NCBI GenBank assembly: GCA_964349465.1
Contig: CAYGGC010000007.1
Span: forward strand, 1 to 58,669
Direction: 5' to 3'
Length of the DNA: 58,669 bases
Origin: an uncultured Gammaproteobacteria bacterium
Lineage (GTDB): Bacteria; Patescibacteriota; Patescibacteriia; SBBC01; CAIJZX01
The notes below the pieces were generated by a model. It was not told where the DNA came from. It saw only the letters and a list, made by a program, of their open reading frames with translations, and did no database searches. How positions within the stretch are numbered: position 1 is the first letter of the stretch; the number at the start of each line of letters is the position of its first letter. A program made the translations under genes and the position numbers. This document shows positions 2,586-33,893 of the stretch, piece after piece.

Positions 2586-4202
2586 CTATTCGGTTCGGGT
2601 GAAGATAAATATTGTGACCAGTGGATCGGTTGTTAGTGTCCAAGGGAGGCCGCGCCACGAGTTTCCATAGTACCCGTTTTTCGGTGATGGTTGCATCGCG
2701 CGGAGGAAGGTAACGGCTGATCCAGGGGGCGAGTAGCGTTTTTGTTCTTCAAACCCCATTTTTCCTAAAGCGTTCCATGTAATGCCAAGCGAGATTTCTG
2801 GAATCGCGATCGGCTCGCCGATGTGCGCACCTGTCATTGTTATTTCTAACGGATGAAAACCTTCACCCTCGGCGTACCATTGCCATCCCCAATGCCCAAG
2901 ATACCAAACCTTTGTTGCCGGGTAGTCTTTCGAAATTTGTTGCGCCGTTGTCTGAAAACTTTTTGCCCAGACCCAGTCGGAAAGAGCTAGCCAACTACCC
3001 AGAAGAACAGTGAGACCAGTGGCGGTTATTAGGCCACGGCGCGAGATTCGGGTGGTCAGAAAAAAAAGCAGGGTAATGAACGGTACTGACAACATGACGT
3101 GTCGCACGGCCATGAACGGTGAAAGTGCGATCGTAAAAACGGCGACACCAACCGACCATAACCCGAGCGGGTAGAGCGCCACGCGTGAGTGTGAGTCTTG
3201 ATGGCGCCAGCTGCGGACAGCAAACACAATCGCTAAAGTTCCAGTACTGAAAAAAATCGCTCGCAGGACAACGTTCATCAGTGTCGTGTCGATAACCATG
3301 GCATGGAGGCCACTGATGAATATCCCGGTCACGATCGCGCCTAGCAGGCTATTGTGCCGTTGGCCGCTGGTCAGAAATGACGGTCGCCACCACCACACAA
3401 ACGGTACACTTGCCCCAAGCGCAGTCATCCAATCATCGAGGCGTAGGATCATCAACCAGAGCGTTCGTCGGTCAGCTGGACGATCAAGCCAGTGCACGTG
3501 GCCGTATTGTGAGTACGTCCAGACCGACCAAGCGAGTAACACGGTTCCGGCGATGGCGATGCCCACCCAAATTTTTCGGTCTTTCGTTCGGATAAGCTCC
3601 CAACAAAAAACCGGTATTAGGATTAAGGCCGTGTACTTCATCAAGAGTGCGCCGCTTGCGAGTATTCCAGCGAGTACTACATGTCGCCAGGAGCGCTGTC
3701 CCCGCGACGGTGCCAGCAGGAGCACCGACCAAAGAGATAAAGCCAGAAGAGGAATATCGGTCATGAGATTTATTCCGGGATAGAACGCCGGACCAAAAAT
3801 TGTCATCAGGCCAATCGGAATCATCATCCCTGGAATACTACGACGCGCAAATTCAACGGAGGCCAACACCGCCGCGAGATGAAAGAGAGCGGTGATGACA
3901 TGAAGTGCGACCGTCGACTGACCGCCGAGCGATACAACGAGAGCGAGGAGCCACATGAAGCCGTGCGGTTGATTCACGAAGGCCACATTCTGCCATAGCC
4001 CAGCCAGGAATATTTTGGACTGCATGATCGAGGCGGGGTGCTGGATGATAACCTTGGCAACATCAAGATAGGCCGTATCATCCATTGTGATCGGCTTGGT
4101 GAGTGTGAGCGGAGTGGAGATGAGCCACAGCAATACCACAACCAAGATTGGTCGGGACAGTAGAGCAAGAAGCCAGCGTGGGCGAGATGGAGAGAATTGC
4201 AT
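2586..4202 (-). CDS. polytopic membrane glycosyltransferase, GT-C (ArnT/PMT, GT39/83-like)
   Basis: Many hydrophobic segments. First-loop motif MDDTAYLDVA is typical of GT-C enzymes. ATG 4202 is preferred because GTG 4298 would overlap the divergent gene. Confidence 0.6.
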   Translation of the reverse strand: MQFSPSRPRWLLALLSRPILVVVLLWLISTPLTLTKPITMDDTAYLDVAKVIIQHPASIMQSKIFLAGLWQNVAFVNQPHGFMWLLALVVSLGGQSTVALHVITALFHLAAVLASVEFARRSIPGMMIPIGLMTIFGPAFYPGINLMTDIPLLALSLWSVLLLAPSRGQRSWRHVVLAGILASGALLMKYTALILIPVFCWELIRTKDRKIWVGIAIAGTVLLAWSVWTYSQYGHVHWLDRPADRRTLWLMILRLDDWMTALGASVPFVWWWRPSFLTSGQRHNSLLGAIVTGIFISGLHAMVIDTTLMNVVLRAIFFSTGTLAIVFAVRSWRHQDSHSRVALYPLGLWSVGVAVFTIALSPFMAVRHVMLSVPFITLLFFLTTRISRRGLITATGLTVLLGSWLALSDWVWAKSFQTTAQQISKDYPATKVWYLGHWGWQWYAEGEGFHPLEITMTGAHIGEPIAIPEISLGITWNALGKMGFEEQKRYSPPGSAVTFLRAMQPSPKNGYYGNSWRGLPWTLTTDPLVTIFIFTRTE

Positions 4203-4281
4203 CAAGGGCAGATGTTTAGCGCGTGAAGGAAGTCTAGCATGTCGCCAAAGAAGAAGAAATTTGCTAGGCTGAAGGTACTCT

Positions 4282-4833
4282 ATGGATACGCCCGTCACAC
4301 TTCTTCAGGCGGCGCCACTGGTACAAAAACTCGGCGTCACGGCCGGTCAAACCATTGGCGATTTTGGCGCTGGCGGATCCGGTCATATCGCGGTTGAACT
4401 TGGTCGGGCGGTTGGCGCCGAAGGGAACGTGCTCTTGTTCGATGTCCAGAAGTCGGCGCTTTCGGCCGCGATGAGTGCGCTACAGACGCATGGTGTTACT
4501 AACGTGCAGACGGTTTGGACTGATCTTGAGGTGTATCGCGGCGCTAGTGGCGTTGGTGAAGCGACGCTTGATGCTGGGATTCTCGTAAACGTACTCCACC
4601 AAAGCAAACAACCGAAAGCCATTTTGGCCGAAGTTGGACGGATGGTCAAATCAGGCGCGCGTTTGCTCGTGGTAGATTGGTTGACCGAAGCCGCGACGCC
4701 GCTTGCCCCGCCACCGGCGATGCGACTTGGCGCGGAACATGTCAGTCAAATTGCCCAAGCTGTTGGCTTTGCGCAGCTTGAGATTTTTTCGGCCGGACCG
4801 TATTACTGGGGGCTGGTCCTGATTAAAACGTAA
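4282..4833 (+). CDS. class I SAM-dependent methyltransferase
   Basis: Motif I DFGAGGSG followed by LLFDV. 183 aa. Confidence 0.75.
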   Translation: MDTPVTLLQAAPLVQKLGVTAGQTIGDFGAGGSGHIAVELGRAVGAEGNVLLFDVQKSALSAAMSALQTHGVTNVQTVWTDLEVYRGASGVGEATLDAGILVNVLHQSKQPKAILAEVGRMVKSGARLLVVDWLTEAATPLAPPPAMRLGAEHVSQIAQAVGFAQLEIFSAGPYYWGLVLIKT

Positions 4834-5184
4834 ATGCCGTCGCCCCGACAACGCCGGGGAACCGAAGCCGAAGATCGAGCGGCTGATTTTTTGATTCAGA
4901 AAGGGATGCGGTTGATTGATCGTCATGTGAGTTCGCGGTACGGAGAAATTGACCTACTCATGCAAGACGGTGAAACAATCGTGGCGGTTGAAGTAAAAGC
5001 CCGCCGTTCAAACGTCGTTGGAACCGCGCTCGAAGCTGTGACGCCAACCAAGTATGAAAAAATTGCGCAGACACTATATATACTGTGTGACGACGGTAAT
5101 TTGAGTGCTGAGAATGTTCGAATTGATTTGGTAACAGTTGAACCGAGTGGCCTACAATATTATCGTGGGATTAGTCCAGACTAG
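4834..5184 (+). CDS. yraN: YraN-family (UPF0102) endonuclease
   Basis: GTEAEDRAADFL...YGEIDLL...VAVEVKAR, a PD-(D/E)xK pattern. The ATG directly abuts the upstream TAA. Confidence 0.8.
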   Translation: MPSPRQRRGTEAEDRAADFLIQKGMRLIDRHVSSRYGEIDLLMQDGETIVAVEVKARRSNVVGTALEAVTPTKYEKIAQTLYILCDDGNLSAENVRIDLVTVEPSGLQYYRGISPD

Positions 5185-5430
5185 TCGTTAGCACATACAA
5201 GGTGTTTGTCGATGGCGTCGGAATTATGTCAAAGTTATTTTACAGTATTTCGTTCGTCTGAAATTTCTTTGTGTTCGACGCTAGGCGGGTGAATTCAAAA
5301 AGAAAATACCTATCTCTCGTACATACAACATGTATTTGATGCAAGCTCTTGACCCTGGTCAAGAGAAGGAGTAGGACTACTCTAATAGTTCATGTGAGCG
5401 CACTTTCCAACTACCCTGAGAGGAGGAGCC

Positions 5431-5643
5431 ATGATAGCGCTACAGATGACGGCCATCAGCCTGATCCAGACAATCCTGGTGGTCGCCATGTACTGGGCCT
5501 TCGTCGTCGTCGTACTTGGCATGTTTGCCCATTGCTACGGCACAGGATTGCCATCGCGGGCGAAAACGCTCGTCCTCTACCACGTTGTTCTGTTTCTTGT
5601 AGGAGCCGCGTTGCTGTGGGTGATCGGCTCTCTCGTCGGGTAG
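5431..5643 (+). CDS. small hydrophobic membrane protein (70 aa)
   Basis: GAGGAGGAG Shine-Dalgarno just upstream of the ATG. Two hydrophobic helices. Confidence 0.5.
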   Translation: MIALQMTAISLIQTILVVAMYWAFVVVVLGMFAHCYGTGLPSRAKTLVLYHVVLFLVGAALLWVIGSLVG

Positions 5644-5808: not shown

Positions 5809-7179
5809 ATGGCGGATTCCGCCCTCAAACAAGCGATCGAAGAGATTTGTCAGGAAAAGAATATTCCGTACCAATCGGTGATTGAAACAATCGAGGCGGC
5901 CTTAGCCGTTGCGTATCGGAAAGATTTTGGCGAAAAAAACCAGAATATTATTGCCACGTTCGATCCGGAAACCGGTGAGAGCCGGGTGTTTGACCTGAAA
6001 ATTGTCGTCGAGGATAAGCTGGCGAAGGAATATGAAGCCGAGCAAGCCAAGCGCGAAGCGGCCGAAGCTGATGGAACACTTGAAGGGTATCTTGAAGCGA
6101 AGCGTCAGGAAGAAGATGAGCGCCGCATGAAGGCCTTGGCGGACGCCGGCGTGACGCCCGAGCAGTTAGTGTCAGGTCAGGTCCCGACCATCGAAGTTAA
6201 AGATGATCGCTTTGACCCGAAAAAGCATATTGGCTTGGCCGAAGCGAAAAAACTCGGTGATTTTGACTTGGGCGCCGAAATTCGGACGGAACTCTTTCCG
6301 CCGGCGGCCTATGGACGCATGGCTGCGCAAACCGCGAAGCAAGTCATTATCCAGCGGATCCGCGAGGCGGAACGCGACATTGTCTATAAGGAGTATAAAG
6401 GCCGTGAAGGCGAAGTCATTACGGCGATGGTCCAGCGCGTTGAAGGCCGGATGGTCTTTATCGATCTTGGACATACCACGGCGATTATGCCACCGCCAGA
6501 ACAGGTTGAACGCGAACACTATCGTCTCGGCGATCGGATTAAAATTTATCTTGTGGCCGTCAACATGACCCCGAAGGGTCCGGAAATTGTGGTTTCACGC
6601 GCTCATCCGGAAATGGTGCGAAAACTCTTTACGCTTGAAGTGCCGGAGTTGCAAAGCGGCGCGGTGGAAATCAAAGGTATTTCCCGTGAAGCTGGCCTGC
6701 GGACAAAGATTGCGGTTTACTCCGAACAGAAGAATATCGATCCGGTCGGTTCACTCGTCGGTCAGCGTGGGACGCGTGTCCAAACGGTTATTTCCGAACT
6801 CGGCGGCGAAAAGATTGATATTATCGAGTGGAGCGACGATCCGGTGAAATACATCACCAACGCGCTGTCACCAGCCAAAGTCATTTCCATCAAACTCGAT
6901 CACGATACGCACGCGGCGGTCGCGGAAGTCAAAGAAGACCAGTTGTCGCTCGCGATCGGGAAGTCCGGTCAGAACGTTCGCTTAGCTGCGAAGTTGACCG
7001 GTTGGAAAATTGATTTGATTGGGGACGCGACGCCGGAAGCGCCGGCCGCAACCGAAGAAACGGCTACTACGACGGATGAGGTTCCGGCTGAAACACCGGT
7101 TACAGATGAGCCGGCCGAACCAGTCGCCGTCGCCGCCGAACAACCGTCGGAATCAACCGACGCTGAAACTACGTCTTAA
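5809..7179 (+). CDS. nusA: transcription termination/antitermination factor NusA with acidic low-complexity tail
   Basis: NusA N-domain, S1 (GEVITAMVQRVEG) and two KH modules (GQRGTRVQ, IGKSGQNVRLA). ATG 5809; alternative TTG 5788. Confidence 0.9.
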   Translation: MADSALKQAIEEICQEKNIPYQSVIETIEAALAVAYRKDFGEKNQNIIATFDPETGESRVFDLKIVVEDKLAKEYEAEQAKREAAEADGTLEGYLEAKRQEEDERRMKALADAGVTPEQLVSGQVPTIEVKDDRFDPKKHIGLAEAKKLGDFDLGAEIRTELFPPAAYGRMAAQTAKQVIIQRIREAERDIVYKEYKGREGEVITAMVQRVEGRMVFIDLGHTTAIMPPPEQVEREHYRLGDRIKIYLVAVNMTPKGPEIVVSRAHPEMVRKLFTLEVPELQSGAVEIKGISREAGLRTKIAVYSEQKNIDPVGSLVGQRGTRVQTVISELGGEKIDIIEWSDDPVKYITNALSPAKVISIKLDHDTHAAVAEVKEDQLSLAIGKSGQNVRLAAKLTGWKIDLIGDATPEAPAATEETATTTDEVPAETPVTDEPAEPVAVAAEQPSESTDAETTS

Positions 7180-17275: not shown

Positions 17276-18457
17276 ATGAAAAAGTCGAGTAATCCGAAGT
17301 TATTTGCTGTAAAAAACATGACCAAGGATTACGTACTATTTGTAAATAGGGGAAATTTGAGGATAGCTCGTGAAAACATGGGCTTGGATTTTTTTGCTGC
17401 ATCAAAAAAAATTACGACGTCAAAAAGAAATTACGTTAAGGAATGGGAAGAAGGTGCCTCACTGCCGAAATGGTCGCAGTTAATCAAACTAGCAAAAGCA
17501 TACAACATCTCTGAACTAGCTCTTTGTAGTAAAGAGGAAATTCAAAAAAACAAAAAGATTACAGATTTTCGAGTTGAAATCAAAGATGACAATAATGAAA
17601 AAGTAAATAAGCTTATAAACATTGTTTCTTCTCGCCAAAGATGGTTGGAAAGAAAAATGAAGGAAGATGGTTTGGCAAAGAATAAACTGGTAGGTTTTGG
17701 AAGAGACATTGATGATCCAATAAAACTGGCCAAGGTGGTAGCCGACGAGCTAGATTTTAATTTGCAGAATATAATAAATTTTTCTGGCAATGATGCGAAA
17801 AAGAAAGCACTCAAATACCTTACTGAAAAAGTTGAGTCTAAAGGAATATTTGTAGGTAAAACTATATCCTATATCAAAGTTGATGTTGAGGATTTACGGG
17901 GCCTTTCGATTAGTAACGATTATTGTCCTTTCATTGTTATCAATAGGAGCGACTCTGTAGCCGCTCAAATTTTCTCTTTAGTTCATGAGGTAACACATGT
18001 ATTTAGAAAAAGTGATGCTATTTCAAATAGCCTGGAATTCAGAAAAGAACAAACTCGCTTAGATCCCGAAGAAAGAATTTGTAATAGTGTTGCAGCCGAG
18101 TTATTGTTGCCCGAATCAGAGTTTACAAAGCCATTTTATGACCGGGAAAATATTTACGAATTTGCTGAAAAGTATAAAGCCAGCCCACTTTTTGTTCTAT
18201 ACAGAATGAAAGAATTGGGAAAGTTAGGTAAAGGAAGTTTTTCCGAATTGGAAAATAGTATTAGAACAGAGACAAATAGAAATTTAGAAGAAAAGAAAAA
18301 ATTGATGATGGGCAAATCAGGTGGGAGCTTCATCAACAACATGAAAGACTCAAATGGAAATTTGTTTAATAACTTTGTGTCTAGCGCGTATTTTGAGAAA
18401 AAAATAGGTTTTATAGAAGCCGCGAATCTCTTGAAATATTCCCCTGAACAGGCATGA
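17276..18457 (+). CDS. XRE-type HTH fused to ImmA/IrrE-family (COG2856) zinc metallopeptidase
   Basis: N-terminal HTH-like segment (LRIARENMGL...LIKLAKAYNISELAL) and HExxH (VHEVTHVF). 393 aa. Local GC is far below the flanks. Confidence 0.75.
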   Translation: MKKSSNPKLFAVKNMTKDYVLFVNRGNLRIARENMGLDFFAASKKITTSKRNYVKEWEEGASLPKWSQLIKLAKAYNISELALCSKEEIQKNKKITDFRVEIKDDNNEKVNKLINIVSSRQRWLERKMKEDGLAKNKLVGFGRDIDDPIKLAKVVADELDFNLQNIINFSGNDAKKKALKYLTEKVESKGIFVGKTISYIKVDVEDLRGLSISNDYCPFIVINRSDSVAAQIFSLVHEVTHVFRKSDAISNSLEFRKEQTRLDPEERICNSVAAELLLPESEFTKPFYDRENIYEFAEKYKASPLFVLYRMKELGKLGKGSFSELENSIRTETNRNLEEKKKLMMGKSGGSFINNMKDSNGNLFNNFVSSAYFEKKIGFIEAANLLKYSPEQA

Positions 18458-18945
18458 CGAGCGGTCTCTCACAAAATACCCTTGTACTTGATACAAATGT
18501 GTTAATAGATTTTGCAATTTGGCTTCCGTTTGAAGTTAATACAACTTTTTGGTCTGTATTAGAGAAAGGCTTAGAACAAGCACGCTGGGTTCTTTTGGAT
18601 GTTGTTGAGCAAGAAATTGTTGGCAAATACGATCAGGATTTAAAGAAATGGTGTAACGAACAAAAAAAACTGGGGTTAGTCACAGCAATTACCCCAGCTA
18701 ATCGCCAAAGAGCAATCGAAATTAATAATCAATACAAAATGGTTGACGATGTTTCAGGAAATTCCGCCGCTGACCCATATATTTTAGCTTTTGCCGAAGC
18801 AGAAAAAATCACTTTGTTTTCTCGAGAAGGTAAACGTGATAATCCCACAAAGTTATACAAGATGGAAGAGGTTGCACTTCTACTTGGAATCAAGTACACA
18901 AGATTACCAAATGCTCTATATAAAGAGTTGAATTACATCAACTAG
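18454..18945 (+). CDS. DUF4411-family PIN-like protein
   Basis: ATGA start/stop overlap with the peptidase gene. LVLDTNVLIDF...FW..L......VV.QEI...AADPYILAFA matches the DUF4411/PIN-like pattern. Confidence 0.7.
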   Translation: MTSGLSQNTLVLDTNVLIDFAIWLPFEVNTTFWSVLEKGLEQARWVLLDVVEQEIVGKYDQDLKKWCNEQKKLGLVTAITPANRQRAIEINNQYKMVDDVSGNSAADPYILAFAEAEKITLFSREGKRDNPTKLYKMEEVALLLGIKYTRLPNALYKELNYIN

Positions 18946-29373: not shown

Positions 29374-29448
29374 GGCCACGTAGCCAAGTGGTAAGGCACG
29401 GGTCTGCAAAACCTGTATTCGGCGGTTCGATTCCGCCCGTGGCCTCCA
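29374..29448 (+). tRNA. tRNA-Cys(GCA), CCA encoded
   Basis: Cloverleaf folded by hand: acceptor GGCCACG/CGTGGCC, anticodon loop CTGCAAA, T-loop GGTTCGATTCC. Confidence 0.9.
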
Positions 29449-29467: not shown

Positions 29468-29542
29468 GCGGGTGTAGTTCAGTGGTAGAACGCTTCCTTG
29501 CCAAGGAAGAGGTCGCCGGTTCGATCCCGGTCGCCCGCTCCA
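29468..29542 (+). tRNA. tRNA-Gly(GCC), CCA encoded
   Basis: Acceptor GCGGGTG/CGCCCGC, anticodon stem-loop CTTCC-TTGCCAA-GGAAG, T-loop TTCGATC. Confidence 0.9.
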
Positions 29543-29545
29543 AAA
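29502..29545 (+). repeat. direct repeat copy 1 (attL-like, inside tRNA-Gly)
   Basis: CAAGGAAGAGGTCGCCGGTTCGATCCCGGTCGCCCGCTCCAAAA, identical to 33078-33121. Confidence 0.9.
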
Positions 29546-29631
29546 GTAATAAAGATAGGCATAAACTAACATTTACGCCTGTTTCGTGTACCTCTTCCGA
29601 ACGGGAAGTGAGCGTCACGACCTACTCCAGT

Positions 29632-29670
29632 AATCACAACCACTTCTGTGGCCGGGAAGTGGTCGTGATT
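29632..29670 (+). other. 15-bp imperfect hairpin just inside the island
   Basis: AATCACAACCACTTC-9 nt-GAAGTGGTCGTGATT (one mismatch) followed by TTTT. CGGGAAGTG is repeated at 29602 and 29652. Confidence 0.4.
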
Positions 29671-29780
29671 TTCGGTACAGCACTTTCTTGCGCGTCGCGT
29701 ATCGCAGGATGAGAAGCCAACAACACACCAACCCCGCTTACTAGACAAGACGATGGTAATATGTTCTCATTGCTTTGTTT

Positions 29781-30767
29781 ATGATTATTGATCTGCGTGA
29801 ACCATCTGAAGAAGAGTACCGCTTTGCAACATATCTGCACTATGTTGATAGTCTTCGCAACCTCATCACTTATTACCACAACCCACTCGGGGCGCTTTTG
29901 ATGCTCTGTCGTGACTCGACACACTTCGCGCACATTCAACGCAACACTAGCGCAGATATTGCCCGGATAGCACTAAAGCTGCGTAATGCCTGGTCAACGG
30001 AATTATCGTTGCGCTTTACGGGCCTGTTAGGCAACGGGCTTGTGCGGTATGCAAATCATTGGGCACCTGTTCAGACCTACTACTCTGCGTATCTTGCCGC
30101 TCAGGGATTTTTTCTGGCATGTAACCGATCTGAATCTCGGAGTCATTCATCCGGGCTATCTCAACTGGCAGCTGACATTGGCGATGGCCGGTTAATCATG
30201 CCCGCACCGTTATCAGCCCTTTCAATTTCAACGACCATAACAGACACAACGGGGTTTTCCGAGGTTCCGACAAATATCACGATAACGCCGGTCAGTTCAA
30301 TAGCCCATACTAGCAGTAATAATTGGTGGAACCTCTATGCTCTAGCATTGCGAACAACCAGGGAGCGCCTCCTAGAGGAGCGGGTTGACCAATGGCGACG
30401 ACAAAACAAGACTGCTGGGGGTAAGCCGCGAAAGAATGTTCCTGCTTCAGTACGATCGGATCAAGACACTGCCCTGCGTCCTGTCTCAATATTTGATTTC
30501 TTGTACAGGATGCGCATCCGTTCCAATTATCGTGACGCCGACACGTTCTTGGAACAACGTGTTTCAGACCAGGAAGCTGCGCAGTTTAACACGGCGTTAT
30601 TAGATATTGAGTATACGCTTTTATTAGTACTTGAAGCGCACATAAGACAACATATTGGTCGCGACGCTTACGCAAATATTGTGCAAGACTTTGTTGCGAA
30701 GGTACCTGATATTGTTGAGACTATCCCGGTTGAACAGCGCCTTCAATTAATAGAGCAGTACTGCTAA
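29781..30767 (+). CDS. island protein A, uncharacterised (about 328 aa)
   Basis: Long ORF preceded by an extended -10 (TGGTAATAT, 29754-29762). No Shine-Dalgarno and no family recognised by eye. Contains a FLYRMRIRSNYRD segment. Alternative start TTG 29775. Confidence 0.6.
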   Translation: MIIDLREPSEEEYRFATYLHYVDSLRNLITYYHNPLGALLMLCRDSTHFAHIQRNTSADIARIALKLRNAWSTELSLRFTGLLGNGLVRYANHWAPVQTYYSAYLAAQGFFLACNRSESRSHSSGLSQLAADIGDGRLIMPAPLSALSISTTITDTTGFSEVPTNITITPVSSIAHTSSNNWWNLYALALRTTRERLLEERVDQWRRQNKTAGGKPRKNVPASVRSDQDTALRPVSIFDFLYRMRIRSNYRDADTFLEQRVSDQEAAQFNTALLDIEYTLLLVLEAHIRQHIGRDAYANIVQDFVAKVPDIVETIPVEQRLQLIEQYC

Positions 30768-30964
30768 CTTCACCTGAAGGGCCATGAGGCGACCGTGAGT
30801 CTCGAGGGAAGGAAGTGCCACGCACTACGTTCTGTGTCACTTGACGTACTGCTACTTTTATGTTAGTAATATTCGTTATTGTTGTTATTTCCCGCCCATT
30901 TACAAACGCGTCTATGACGCTATATACGACATAACACCAATCGCTAACGCCTTCCTATTGGAGG

Positions 30965-32887
30965 ATGCACGTGAGAATTACTCCTCGTCCTTATCAACGG
31001 ACAGCAGTGCAGGCAGCCCTCAAGGCTCTTCGGGGACGATTCAAAAAAGCCCTCGTGGTCTTGGCAACTGGTCTGGGAAAGACGTACACCGCCGCTTTCA
31101 TCGCGCAGGAATTTCGCGCGAAACGCATTCTGTTTCTCGTGCACAACAACTTCATTCTTGACCATGCCATGTCTGAATTCAGCCATGTCTTCGGTGCGAA
31201 GACGAAGATGGCAATGTTCAACGGCATGTCCAAGAACGGATCGCCTGAAGCAGACATTGTCTTTGCCACCTGGCAAACGATGGGCAAGAACCTGAAACGA
31301 TGGCGACGCGATCATTTCGATCTCGTCATCGTCGATGAAGCGCACCACACGGAGGCCGAAACGTATCGACCGGTTGTTGAATATTTCACCGGGCCGAAGC
31401 TCGGCATCACCGCTACGCCAGACCGCTTGGACAAAGCGGATATCCGTGACATTTTCGGCTCAGAAGTCGCCAACATCACCCTCGAAGAAGCGATAGCCCG
31501 CGGGTGGCTACCTCGGATCGAGTATCACGTCATTACTGACGAGAGTCTCGATGAGGACGCCTTGCAGCAAATCGCTCGCGAAATCCGAGAGGCGCGGAGG
31601 CGCTTCACGATGGCGGAGGTCAACCGCCGCATCTTCATTCGCAAGCGTGATAAGGAGATTGCTCGGATCATTAATGGCTACACTGAAAAGGCCATTGTGT
31701 TCTGCGCCTCCATCAAACACGCCGAGCGGATGAATAAGTCACTTGTCCTTTCCTCAGTCTTTCACTCAGAAGCTGGGAGTGGACAGAAAGAGGTCTGGCA
31801 CAATAACCAGGTTGCACTTGAAGGACTCAAGAATGGAACCATCCGTCGCATTTGCTCCGTCAATGCGTTCAACGAAGGAGTAAATGTTCCCTCAGTTGGG
31901 CTAGTGGCATTCTGTCGAGTCACCAGCGCGCAAACGATCTTCCGGCAGCAGTTGGGCCGGGGGCTTCGTCCGGGTAAGGACAAGCTCATCGTCCTCGACT
32001 TCGTTGGGAACCTGGAGCGAATCCAGCAAGTGCAGGCGATGATGAATACTACCGCTGATATGCACGAGCAATTTACTCCACAACAAGATCGCGAGCGCGA
32101 AGGGTACGAACGTCAGCGGTTTGAAGTCTCCGGAGCTGGATTCGAGTTCACATTCTCTGACCGAATCGTGGACTTGATGAAGATTCTGGAACATGTCGAA
32201 AGCGACTTCTACCCCACGTGTCAGGAGGCAGGTAATGCTGCTGTGGCTATGGGCATTAAAATAGCCCGAGAGTATAAACTGCGATATAAGGAAGACCCTC
32301 GATTGCACTCAAATCCGAAGGTGCTTTATGGGGATTTTCCATCCTGGCCAGAGTTTCTTGGTCGGCCCAAAGTTGCGCCTTACGGTTCATGGCAAGAGGC
32401 TAGCAAAGCTGCCATTCACCTCGAGGCCACTTCAGCCAAGGAATACTTCGCAGCCATCGCGCGAGATCCTCGCTTGCCTTCCAATCCATACGTCTACTAC
32501 GAAGACTTTCCAGGGTTCCCGGTATTCCTTGGAAAGTCGGTAATAGATCATTATGGCACCTGGGAGGAGGCGAGCACGGCGACAAGGCAGCTAGGCATTA
32601 ACACTCAAACTGAATACTCCGTGTATCACAAAAAGGATCCCCGCCTACCCTCGTCTCCTCTTAGTAAATACCAAGACTTCCCGGGCTGGGATGCGTTCTT
32701 CGGAAGGGAGAAGAAGAGGCTCTACTCCACATGGCTTGATGCAAGTCAGTCCGCCATCTCGCTAGGGTTTAAGTCCAAATCGGAATACTCATTAGGGTAT
32801 AAAAGAGATCCTCGGTTACCGGCTTCCCCTGGCGAGGCATATGAAGACTTCCCAGGCTGGAAGAAGTTTCTCGGAAAGGAGAAATAG
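30965..32887 (+). CDS. SF2 helicase (ResIII/DEAH + helicase-C) with four C-terminal tandem repeats
   Basis: PYQ (Q-motif), Walker A ATGLGKT, DEAH, TATP and QQLGRGLR. GGAGG is followed by ATG 30965 and GTG 30971. Confidence 0.85.
   Translation: MHVRITPRPYQRTAVQAALKALRGRFKKALVVLATGLGKTYTAAFIAQEFRAKRILFLVHNNFILDHAMSEFSHVFGAKTKMAMFNGMSKNGSPEADIVFATWQTMGKNLKRWRRDHFDLVIVDEAHHTEAETYRPVVEYFTGPKLGITATPDRLDKADIRDIFGSEVANITLEEAIARGWLPRIEYHVITDESLDEDALQQIAREIREARRRFTMAEVNRRIFIRKRDKEIARIINGYTEKAIVFCASIKHAERMNKSLVLSSVFHSEAGSGQKEVWHNNQVALEGLKNGTIRRICSVNAFNEGVNVPSVGLVAFCRVTSAQTIFRQQLGRGLRPGKDKLIVLDFVGNLERIQQVQAMMNTTADMHEQFTPQQDREREGYERQRFEVSGAGFEFTFSDRIVDLMKILEHVESDFYPTCQEAGNAAVAMGIKIAREYKLRYKEDPRLHSNPKVLYGDFPSWPEFLGRPKVAPYGSWQEASKAAIHLEATSAKEYFAAIARDPRLPSNPYVYYEDFPGFPVFLGKSVIDHYGTWEEASTATRQLGINTQTEYSVYHKKDPRLPSSPLSKYQDFPGWDAFFGREKKRLYSTWLDASQSAISLGFKSKSEYSLGYKRDPRLPASPGEAYEDFPGWKKFLGKEK
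32210..32884 (+). repeat. four tandem ~57-codon repeats (W-x-E/D-A...EY...DPRLP-x-x-P...Y-x-DFPGW-x-x-FLG)
   Basis: Read directly from the translated helicase C-terminus. Resembles the so-called integrase-repeat unit. Confidence 0.8.
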
Positions 32888-32917
32888 GCAGGAGTCTAAC
32901 TGTTCATTAGTGCTACA

Positions 32918-32952
32918 ACCGGCAAAGGTATAATCCTCTGCCGGTCTTTTTT
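32918..32952 (+). terminator. intrinsic terminator after the helicase
   Basis: ACCGGCA-14 nt-TGCCGGT followed by CTTTTTT. Confidence 0.55.
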
Positions 32953-33077
32953 ATCCGCTCTCGACAGGTACCGCGATCTGGCATACACTACGTGCGTCGT
33001 TCTTATTCATCCCTGTTACGTAACGATCCGCTTCAATTGAGTCGGATCCGACGCACTCTTCTCGCCTGTTGTACTGG

Positions 33078-33121
33078 CAAGGAAGAGGTCGCCGGTTCGA
33101 TCCCGGTCGCCCGCTCCAAAA
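33078..33121 (+). repeat. direct repeat copy 2 (attR-like tRNA-Gly 3' fragment)
   Basis: Perfect 44-bp copy of 29502-29545 with no 5' half of a tRNA. Confidence 0.9.
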
Positions 33122-33642: not shown

Positions 33643-33728
33643 GCCGCCGTGGTGGAATGGTATACACGAGGGACTTAAAATCCCTTGCCCGCAAGGGCTT
33701 GTCGGTTCGACTCCGACCGGCGGTACCA
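33643..33728 (+). tRNA. tRNA-Leu(TAA), long variable arm, CCA encoded
   Basis: Acceptor GCCGCCG/CGGCGGT, anticodon stem-loop AGGGA-CTTAAAA-TCCCT, variable arm GCCC-GCAA-GGGC. Confidence 0.9.
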
Positions 33729-33870
33729 AATAAATAGGTTGCGCGTGTAGCGCAACAAGAAGAATGACCGTGGGAGAGAGGAGAAGGGCCGAGGACGAAT
33801 TGCCAGTGGCAATTCACCGCAGGCCCAGGGTCGACGAGACGCGGAGCTAGACGAGTCGACCGACTCCGAC

Positions 33871-33893
33871 CGGCGGTACCAAAAAAAACTCTT
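33871..33893 (+). repeat. 23-bp copy of the tRNA-Leu 3' end
   Basis: CGACTCCGACCGGCGGTACCAAA, identical to 33708-33730. Confidence 0.85.

Follow-up and report, generated by a model that had tools for sequence, protein, structure and literature searches.

A split HEPN-T-like protein and an INT_rpt helicase, probably unrelated in function, share a tRNA-Gly island

Introduction

Do two genes that lie side by side on a very small genomic island form a dedicated system, or are they merely neighbours by history? This question is raised by a locus on contig CAYGGC010000007.1 (GenBank assembly GCA_964349465.1), of which positions 1-58,669 were analysed and are referred to below as the window. Beside a tRNA-Gly(GCC) gene, a gene encoding a 328-aa protein (protein A) precedes a gene encoding a superfamily 2 (SF2) helicase. 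A preliminary description of this DNA had presented these two genes as the only cargo of a tRNA island and as a candidate two-gene defence system, likened to Hachiman. We favour, with moderate confidence, a different explanation, in which the locus represents a decayed or trans-mobilised tRNA-Gly island bearing two unrelated genes: one for a split HEPN-T protein with links to restriction-modification (R-M) loci and a putative RNase function, the other for an independently travelling helicase with INT_rpt repeats. All coordinates are positions of the window unless a locus is named, and L-numbers denote the homologous loci that were compared.

Results

Protein A represents a large family absent from the curated libraries searched

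The open reading frame (ORF) of gene A (29775/29781-30767, forward strand) encodes 328 aa from its ATG, equals database copy P0001 and contains FLYRMRIRSNYRD. Protein A had no match in Pfam, NCBIfam or PADLOC, and its sole match in PHROGs was to PHROG 20225 (E = 0.029), a group of unknown function. When PADLOC was applied to 137 relatives, it returned sporadic weak matches only, with HEPN_IX appearing in 3/137. A word-indexed search of 5.8 billion proteins retrieved 20 relatives, all of them hypothetical. When 1.84 billion cluster representatives (50% identity) were searched exhaustively with a profile, at least 1,332 members of the A family were retrieved at E <= 1e-3, 530 of them at E <= 1e-30; nearly all of the best 150 matches listed were full length (~305-350 aa). 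Taken together, these searches show that the A family is large, yet absent from all curated libraries searched.

No relatives of A were found by tblastn among 50,697 phage and 72,556 plasmid records, nor were any found in IMG/VR. A phage structural or housekeeping protein was considered as a candidate identity and rejected: Foldseek gave no significant match in BFVD or the PDB, and the lack of a significant global match excludes an obvious fold of either kind. The preliminary description had called A unassignable. This holds to the extent that no curated family and no named defence system (PADLOC) matches it, and that Foldseek pointed to no housekeeping or phage structural family; it fails to the extent that A is recognisable as a probable split HEPN-T protein, as described below.

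With respect to the distribution of the family, the contig of L121 encodes, at its positions 1-384, a tRNA-splicing endonuclease with duplicated tRNA_int_endo domains, on the same contig as an hsdM-hsdS-A-MNT-hsdR locus (MNT, minimal nucleotidyltransferase). This endonuclease suggests an archaeal host, and hence that the A family spans bacteria and probably archaea. Two A-family paralogues lie ~1-2 kb apart within a single locus in two instances, in tandem in L029 (4218-7234) and divergently in L067 (4300-6951).

Protein A is predicted to contain a HEPN-T-like core split by a conserved insert

An AlphaFold2 (AF2) model of A, built from a 21-sequence alignment, had a predicted local distance difference test (pLDDT) score of 92.1 and a predicted TM-score (pTM) of 0.91, and was entirely helical. 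The largely helical character noted in the preliminary description was thus borne out by the all-alpha model, while the Ser/Thr-rich segment that it read as a central linker is actually part of a well-predicted, conserved insert (pLDDT 92 overall). By residue, the layout consists of helix-1 (~60-82), helix-2 (95-113), His122, the insert (~136-236), helix-3 (237-257) and helix-4 (263-292). These helices follow one another in the order expected for HEPN, with a kink or break at the SNY motif, as is the case for the distorted helix-3 regions reported in HEPN domains (Anantharaman et al., PMC3710099).

Conservation is concentrated in the same segments. Residues Y100, H122 and R243 were invariant in 137/137 A-family sequences, and helix-3 additionally retained R245 (136/137), R247 (125/137), N249 (127/137), Y250 (136/137) and D/E252 (129/137). 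The insert between His122 and R243, which measures 106-137 residues across the family, is itself conserved and has its own LxTTR motif, in which T193 and R194 were present in 136/137 and 131/137 sequences, respectively.

Several comparisons relate the two halves on either side of the insert to HEPN. PF05168 (HEPN) was the sole recurrent Pfam family, matched weakly by 11/21 and 41/137 A members (best E 8e-5). Profiles of the A family matched the HEPN proteins 9xbd and 9xbc in the PDB (E = 2e-3 to 4e-3) and, less strongly, AF0298. In hhalign, a probability of 81% was obtained for the family and the 9xbd segment to which it had been aligned. Following deletion in silico of residues 139-233 from ten members, 8/10, the window protein included, matched PF05168 across the joint. 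These matches spanned profile positions ~23-110 of 117, and the best of them reached 28.8 bits compared to a gathering score of 22. The only local Foldseek match of A that we regard as meaningful was to AF0298 (2hsb), with a probability of 0.72, a target TM-score of 0.45 and a root-mean-square deviation of 2.7 A over 76 columns.

The canonical Rx4-6H motif is not present in A. Instead, the corresponding element reads R247-x4-[D/E]252, so that the tentative hint of HEPN without the motif His in the preliminary description was correct, an Asp or Glu replacing the His. This replacement argues against a canonical HEPN, not against the HEPN-T clade. A D-for-H variant is listed for HEPN-T, and the AF0298-like HEPN-T pattern is considered potentially active through an alternative His (PMC3710099). 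A candidate for this alternative His is found in A, where His122 (137/137) aligns with the His of 9xbd ('SSHSAV').

In common with HEPN-T proteins (PF05168; AF0298, 2hsb; 9xbd/9xbc), A possesses a 'YYA...A...G....H' pattern in helix-2 followed by 'R..S[DN]Y.D' in helix-3, and its family likewise clusters with R-M operons and in a single case with an MNT. It differs from them in length (~328 rather than ~120 aa) and in a ~60-residue N-terminal helical extension. It differs also in its insert of ~115 residues, which is conserved and bears the LxTTR motif, whereas published inserts are at most ~60 residues long and poorly conserved. What is new in the A family is therefore its size, ~325 aa instead of ~120 aa, and the long conserved insert with its LxTTR motif. 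Taken together, sequence and model comparisons indicate that A is HEPN-T-derived and AF0298-like, its predicted core being split by a conserved helical insert of ~115 residues. Because the core is split by such a long insert, the A family is invisible to single-sequence searches. In the collection of papers searched we found no mention of UPF0332 together with HEPN, or of the integrase repeat unit.

Relatives of A occur in restriction-modification loci

Several relatives of A are embedded in or abut R-M genes. The gene order is hsdM-DUF1016-hsdS-A-MNT-hsdR-RadC in L121, hsdS...A-hsdR-RadC in L122 and hsdR-RadC-A in L035. In L004, only 5 bp separate the A relative from the DUF499 ATPase gene that precedes it, and a gene for a DUF1156-type methylase lies farther upstream; in L006 and L007, it lies 13 bp after one or more Dam methylase genes and an AlwI endonuclease gene; in L123, the start of the A relative and the stop of a gene for an Eco57I/TaqI-type methylase overlap by 4 bp. 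A blind census of A neighbours indicated that the families seen more than once were mostly DNA methylases. Other recurrent neighbours were UvrD-type helicases with PD-(D/E)XK nucleases, RadC and radical-SAM proteins, and restriction endonucleases were represented near A genes by single matches to ThaI, AlwI and McrBC. Other A loci with Pfam-annotated neighbours offered ordinary contexts, and A was often solitary. These observations are suggestive of an enrichment of A relatives in R-M operons.

RadC-like JAB-domain genes were seen repeatedly within one or two genes of A-family genes, directly upstream in L001 and L035 and after hsdR in L121 and L122.

In EcoprrI (the prr locus), the PrrC gene sits between genes of the hsdS and hsdR types, and the restriction complex keeps PrrC latent until it is activated by an anti-restriction peptide of a phage. 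By analogy, the hsdS-A-hsdR position in L121 and L122 corresponds to the slot of PrrC in EcoprrI. The likeness of these A relatives to PrrC and RloC is positional, a HEPN-type domain being encoded between hsdS and hsdR, and extends to function only by analogy; unlike PrrC and RloC, A has no ABC-ATPase/P-loop domain and displays no sequence similarity to them, and the window contains neither hsdM nor hsdS. A further resembles Abi2/AbiD/AbiF and DUF4145, which are stand-alone HEPN proteins found in or next to R-M operons (PMC3710099). However, these families keep Rx4-6H, and they gave no recurrent match among the 137 A members at E <= 0.1.

Protein A and the helicase do not recur as a pair

Conservation of the pair was assessed from both sides. 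On the A side, the comparison covered 80 metagenomic loci and 10 loci with Pfam-annotated genes, corresponding to 68 non-redundant contexts. On the helicase side, it covered eight species-representative genomes and four further loci, with close homologues 54-67% identical. The window helicase family was absent from 87 A-family loci searched by profile, and from L121-L123. Since the helicase profile and BLASTP are blind to the true HsdR of L121 and L122, this negative result covers the window helicase family, not every SF2 motor. Conversely, tblastn and six-frame hidden Markov model (HMM) searches found no A-family gene in 12 other helicase loci.

Neighbouring genes gave the same picture. All-against-all BLASTP of 178 neighbours of A genes (68 loci) yielded 170 singletons and four two-member clusters; thus, the A family has no fixed partner gene. 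Helicase homologues were neighboured by genes for NusA, ThrRS, RpoB, TopA/DprA/Mfd, a RuvB-like ATPase, an ABC transporter, ribosomal protein L10, an N6_N4 methylase and serine recombinases, and none of the genes flanking the locus in the window recurred beside them.

These results indicate that the two genes of the window owe their adjacency to history and do not constitute a dedicated system. The two-gene proposal of the preliminary description was not upheld, as the pair is not conserved in other genomes, an outcome that the description itself had set against it. The comparison with Hachiman fails for both components (PADLOC). Hachiman and the window have in common a small protein and an SF2 helicase, encoded by two genes on a mobile island, but A has no HamA/DUF1837 match, the helicase matches HamB at E = 0.014 compared to 2.4e-46 for restriction motors, and the pair is not conserved. 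The defence role proposed at the same time is plausible for A by way of its R-M-embedded relatives, but finds no support for A and the helicase as a pair.

The helicase combines a restriction-type motor with INT_rpt repeats

The helicase bears the motifs LATGLGKT, DEAH, TATP and QQLGRGLR, and matches Pfam ResIII at 7.7e-35, in agreement with its earlier designation as a ResIII/DEAH SF2 helicase. Additional Pfam matches were to Helicase_C (2.3e-8) and to four C-terminal INT_rpt repeats (1.2e-29), the latter having gone unmentioned in the preliminary description. The protein thus consists of an SF2 ResIII + Helicase_C motor (~1-360) followed by four INT_rpt repeats (~410-640), and 171-nt repeats were found internal to its gene. 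The database copy P0022 is 638 aa long, which implies a GTG start at 30971, six bases past GGAGG.

Motor residues 3-352 aligned with residues 219-563 of 953 of SauUSI (PDB 7clg; E = 1.1e-44), followed by RadD and a type I R subunit. PADLOC recognised the mREase_IV core only (model positions 219-562 of 953), and the NCBIfam model for EcoAI-type HsdR scored 154.8 bits compared to a cut-off of 550. Pfam identified neither a nuclease domain (HSDR_N included) nor a target-recognition domain. The motor therefore resembles those of the type IV restriction enzyme SauUSI, EcoAI-type HsdR and RadD. In contrast to SauUSI, the helicase lacks the N-terminal nuclease and the C-terminal target-recognition domain, and has an INT_rpt array instead. 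The island likewise differs from a type I R-M locus in having no HSDR_N on the motor, no adjacent hsdM or hsdS, and only two ORFs with family matches.

The helicase family comprises more than 2,600 relatives, of which the closest are 52-72% identical and belong to Parcubacteria-type lineages. Its members abound in Parcubacteria, Saccharibacteria and related lineages, and INT_rpt was present in all of the best 120 relatives. Viral contigs and phage records contained no close relative, the matches being restricted to the motor at 26-36% identity, bar one 54-residue fragment at 57%. The INT_rpt region is 38-40% identical over ~230 residues to repeats of VPA1269/GmtZ-family integrases encoded by plasmid-borne Gamma-Mobile-Trio islands. 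GmtZ is required for circularisation of Gamma-Mobile-Trio islands. The helicase shares INT_rpt with GmtZ/VPA1269, but has no tyrosine-recombinase domain and is not accompanied by GmtY or GmtX genes; moreover, Gamma-Mobile-Trio islands have inverted repeats at their insertion sites, compared to direct tRNA repeats here. INT_rpt was also observed near the N-terminus of VPA1269/GmtZ integrases on Marinobacter plasmid pMAQU02 (L124; NC_008739.1 127256-131077) and on other Pseudomonas plasmids, as well as in short 'integrase repeat-containing proteins'.

The helicase gene occurs on small repeat-flanked islands

Long near-perfect direct repeats bracketed 3/12 helicase loci (window counted), namely those of the window, L017 and L012; most helicase loci have no flanking repeat. 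In L017 (6205-10171), 41-45 nt of a tRNA-like 3' end are repeated (41 nt exactly), the copies lying 3,693 bp apart and enclosing a 95-aa integrase N-terminal (SAM-like) remnant, a frameshifted helicase homologue and a 137-aa ORF. The tRNA-like halves of L017 are ~197 nt apart, with the 5' half at ~6205-6241 (anticodon loop TTGGTAA) and the 3' half at 6438-6478. ARAGORN and Rfam called neither a tRNA nor a group I intron for this split tRNA, and the 197-nt interruption had no Rfam match. The islands of the window and L017 have in common only the helicase coding sequence and similarity in the tRNA T-arm. In L012 (3271-5589), no gene other than a helicase homologue (3467-5449) lies between perfect 35-nt repeats (39 nt with mismatches) that are 2,280 bp apart and form a terminator-like hairpin; the cassette contains no recombinase. 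L014 (3674-9425) presents the order tRNA-Ala, a 531-aa large serine recombinase, Rep (REP_ORF2-G2P), the INT_rpt helicase and a zinc-ribbon + DUF4145 protein, and is a probable integrated element.

Taken together, these findings indicate that the helicase spreads on small islands independently of A, and the simplest reading of the repeat-flanked helicase islands is that they are decayed or trans-mobilised integrative elements.

A further helicase, P0052 (699 aa), was identical on 24 contigs from different samples, including a TARA ocean sample (L117-L119). Genes for an N6_N4 methylase, a helix-turn-helix protein and a large serine recombinase are always found downstream of it, and the locus resembles an element or organism that has spread widely.

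The tRNA-Gly island of the window

The features of the locus are summarized in Table 1. ORF and Pfam analysis agreed with the earlier account of two co-oriented genes as the only cargo, and the 47-nt direct repeat of tRNA-Gly substantiated the tRNA island. The two copies of this repeat are 46/47 identical (47/50 if extended) and 3,576 bp apart, and its length is far above chance expectation. Apart from the helicase neighbouring A, the 3,576-bp island contained no ORF with a family match; a 106-aa ORF at 30841-31161 had no Pfam match.

Table 1. Features of the tRNA-Gly locus in the window
Feature	Position	Strand	Remarks
tRNA-Cys	29374-29448		upstream of tRNA-Gly(GCC)
tRNA-Gly(GCC), probable integration target	29468-29542	+	ARAGORN; Rfam tRNA 69.8 bits
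Left (attL-like) direct repeat, 47 nt	29499-29545		tRNA-Gly anticodon arm to 3' end plus AAAA
Non-coding left island end	29546-29780	+	terminator-like hairpin 29639-29663, then T-run
Gene A	29781-30767	+	328 aa
Predicted HEPN helix-2 to His122 codons	30063-30146	+	PVQTYYSAYLAAQGFF, including Y100 and Y101; aligned to 9xbd/9xbc
Insert codons, residues 136-236	30186-30488	+	separates the halves of the predicted HEPN core; L190-x-T192-T193-R194 motif near-invariant
Helix-3 motif codons, residues 241-254	30501-30542	+	LYRMRIRSNYRDAD; R243-x-R245-x-R247-S-N-Y-x-[D/E]252
A-helicase spacer, 197 bp	30768-30964	+	GGAGG just 5' of helicase start
Helicase gene	30965-32887	+	640 aa (638 aa from GTG 30971)
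Intrinsic-terminator-like hairpin	32919-32952	+	CCGGCAAAGG-TATAAT-CCTCTGCCGG, then TCTTTTTT; read by eye from the sequence
Right (attR-like) repeat, 47 nt	33075-33121		98% identical to left copy
NTPase_1 gene	ATG 33132		directly 3' of right repeat; Pfam 1.4e-38

Of the two properties by which tRNA islands are recognised, a direct repeat of the tRNA 3' end was found and an integrase at one end was not. No recombinase or integrase was detected by tblastn with four queries against the island and window, a search of limited sensitivity. Neither cargo protein matched a recombinase domain in Pfam, and tblastn with an integrase N-terminal fragment found no integrase remnant in the left island end (29546-29780). 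The GC and GC3 (GC at third codon positions) values of A and the helicase fall within the host range, and base composition is uninformative on the origin of the island. Based on the repeats, 29546-33121 is a small integrase-less insertion at tRNA-Gly(GCC), probably either decayed or trans-mobilised.

The hairpin at 32919-32952 lies 32 nt past the helicase stop and has one mismatch in its stem; it was overlooked by the terminator scanner, and is the sole terminator-like structure 3' of A. A promoter and terminator scan of the spacer between A and the helicase revealed no terminator and no clear promoter. The absence of a terminator in the spacer, together with the presence of one after the helicase, makes co-transcription of the two genes possible.

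Other features of the window

The 3' end (33708-33734) of a tRNA-Leu(TAA) gene at 33643-33728 is repeated 153 bp downstream at 33861-33887 (27 nt, 96% identity), and may be the scar of a further integration or excision event adjoining the tRNA-Gly island. Elsewhere, region 17276-18945 is of low GC content (36%, compared to 52% for the window) and encodes two overlapping genes, one for a 393-aa ImmA/IrrE-type metallopeptidase (Peptidase_M78, 6.8e-16) and one for a 163-aa DUF4411/PIN-like protein (4e-15). This region is a candidate for a second horizontally acquired module of the toxin-antitoxin or defence type.

Discussion

We propose, by analogy with characterised HEPN proteins, that A may be a latent, metal-independent HEPN-type endoribonuclease. 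It would probably be active as a dimer with a composite site, as are HEPN RNases, and its insert may contribute to regulation or substrate recognition. A could serve as a toxin or abortive-infection back-up to restriction, like PrrC, RloC and Abi2-type HEPNs, being activated when infection or anti-restriction disturbs the cell; alternatively, it could act as an addiction module for an R-M locus or for the island. The helicase gene, for its part, would enter small repeat-flanked islands on its own.

Several observations weigh against this interpretation. With regard to A itself, RNase activity is an inference, as the canonical catalytic His of Rx4-6H is absent. The window protein falls short of the PF05168 threshold, giving no match at full length and 16.6 bits (E = 0.0089) after deletion of the insert, compared to 22; Foldseek gave A no significant global match (PDB, BFVD); and the R-M linkage is drawn from raw neighbour counts. 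With regard to the pair, A and the helicase, the only cargo of the island, are co-oriented and 197 bp apart with a terminator after the helicase only, and may share a transcript. In L121 and L122, a gene for a ResIII-type HsdR follows closely after the A relative, in L035 the A relative comes two genes after such a gene, the helicase of L014 is followed by DUF4145, a HEPN-superfamily gene of a different family, and the motor of the window helicase is closest to restriction motors. A looser coupling between helicases and HEPN-type proteins is thus conceivable. These last points would also be expected if A and the helicase formed one two-gene defence system, in which the SF2 motor would sense or translocate on foreign nucleic acid and A would be the effector. 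However, the pair was found nowhere else (0/87 A loci, 0/12 helicase loci), and A has no conserved neighbour. The helicase occurs without A beside NusA, ThrRS, RpoB, TopA/Mfd and RuvB genes, and as the sole gene of the L012 cassette. Moreover, the HsdR proteins beside A relatives belong to another family, being negative with the helicase profile and BLASTP. We consider such a system quite unlikely, and attach a similarly low probability to any functional link between A and the helicase in the window, for which their adjacency is the sole support.

The missing His of Rx4-6H would also fit a catalytically dead, HEPN-derived scaffold, binding nucleic acid or serving as a regulatory or specificity subunit of R-M machinery. 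Some HEPN domains are indeed inactive binding modules (PMC3710099), and a non-toxic protein would be tolerated more easily where A is solitary without an evident antitoxin, as it often is. Nevertheless, R243, R245, R247, N249, Y250, D/E252 and H122 fit the potentially active AF0298-like HEPN-T pattern, and inactive HEPNs usually lose such residues (PMC3710099); loss of activity is in our view unlikely. Because HEPN-T domains classically pair with MNTs (PMC3710099), A could instead be the toxin of a HEPN-MNT (type VII toxin-antitoxin) module, its antitoxin lost or encoded elsewhere, and a 101-aa NTP_transf_2 gene does lie directly after the A relative of L121. Neither phmmer across the other 87 A loci nor tblastn against the window detected a relative of this MNT, the island has no MNT gene, L121 is the only locus with an MNT beside an A relative, and no small neighbour of A genes recurs, all of which render this module very improbable. 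The remaining alternative concerns the helicase-INT_rpt gene, which might be the functional heart of the island, acting in mobilisation, replication or handling of the attachment (att) site, with A an incidental passenger. The long near-perfect repeats at 3/12 helicase loci, the large serine recombinases near the helicase in L014 and L117-L119, and the INT_rpt repeats shared with VPA1269/GmtZ integrases are consistent with such a role. Yet most helicase loci lack a flanking repeat, the helicase has no recombinase catalytic domain, and searches of viral contigs and phage records turned up none of its close relatives. The repeats are accounted for just as well by the decay of ordinary integrase-bearing islands, and L017 keeps an integrase fragment. 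We regard this role for the helicase as doubtful, though with a modest chance of being correct.

A broader proposal is that the INT_rpt helicase defines a class of 2.3-3.7 kb integrase-less islands with att-like repeats in Parcubacteria-type bacteria of the Candidate Phyla Radiation (CPR). It would either move or maintain these islands through its GmtZ-like INT_rpt and motor, or provide a common motor for interchangeable HEPN effectors (A here, DUF4145 in L014). Were this so, the window pair would exemplify a modular scheme, in which the helicase is combined with varying HEPN partners, and not a fixed system; we give the proposal only a slim chance.

Under the explanation that we favour, two unrelated genes on a decayed or trans-mobilised tRNA-Gly island, adjacency on a tiny island is insufficient here to define a system. 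Protein A offers a handle on a large family (more than 1,000 clusters at 50% identity) that curated libraries have missed. As an R-M-embedded HEPN, it represents a candidate effector class for defence catalogues, and provides a testable, PrrC-like model of an RNase that would back up restriction. In addition, the findings on the helicase suggest that gene flow in the reduced-genome, Parcubacteria-type (CPR) bacteria makes use of small integrase-less islands.

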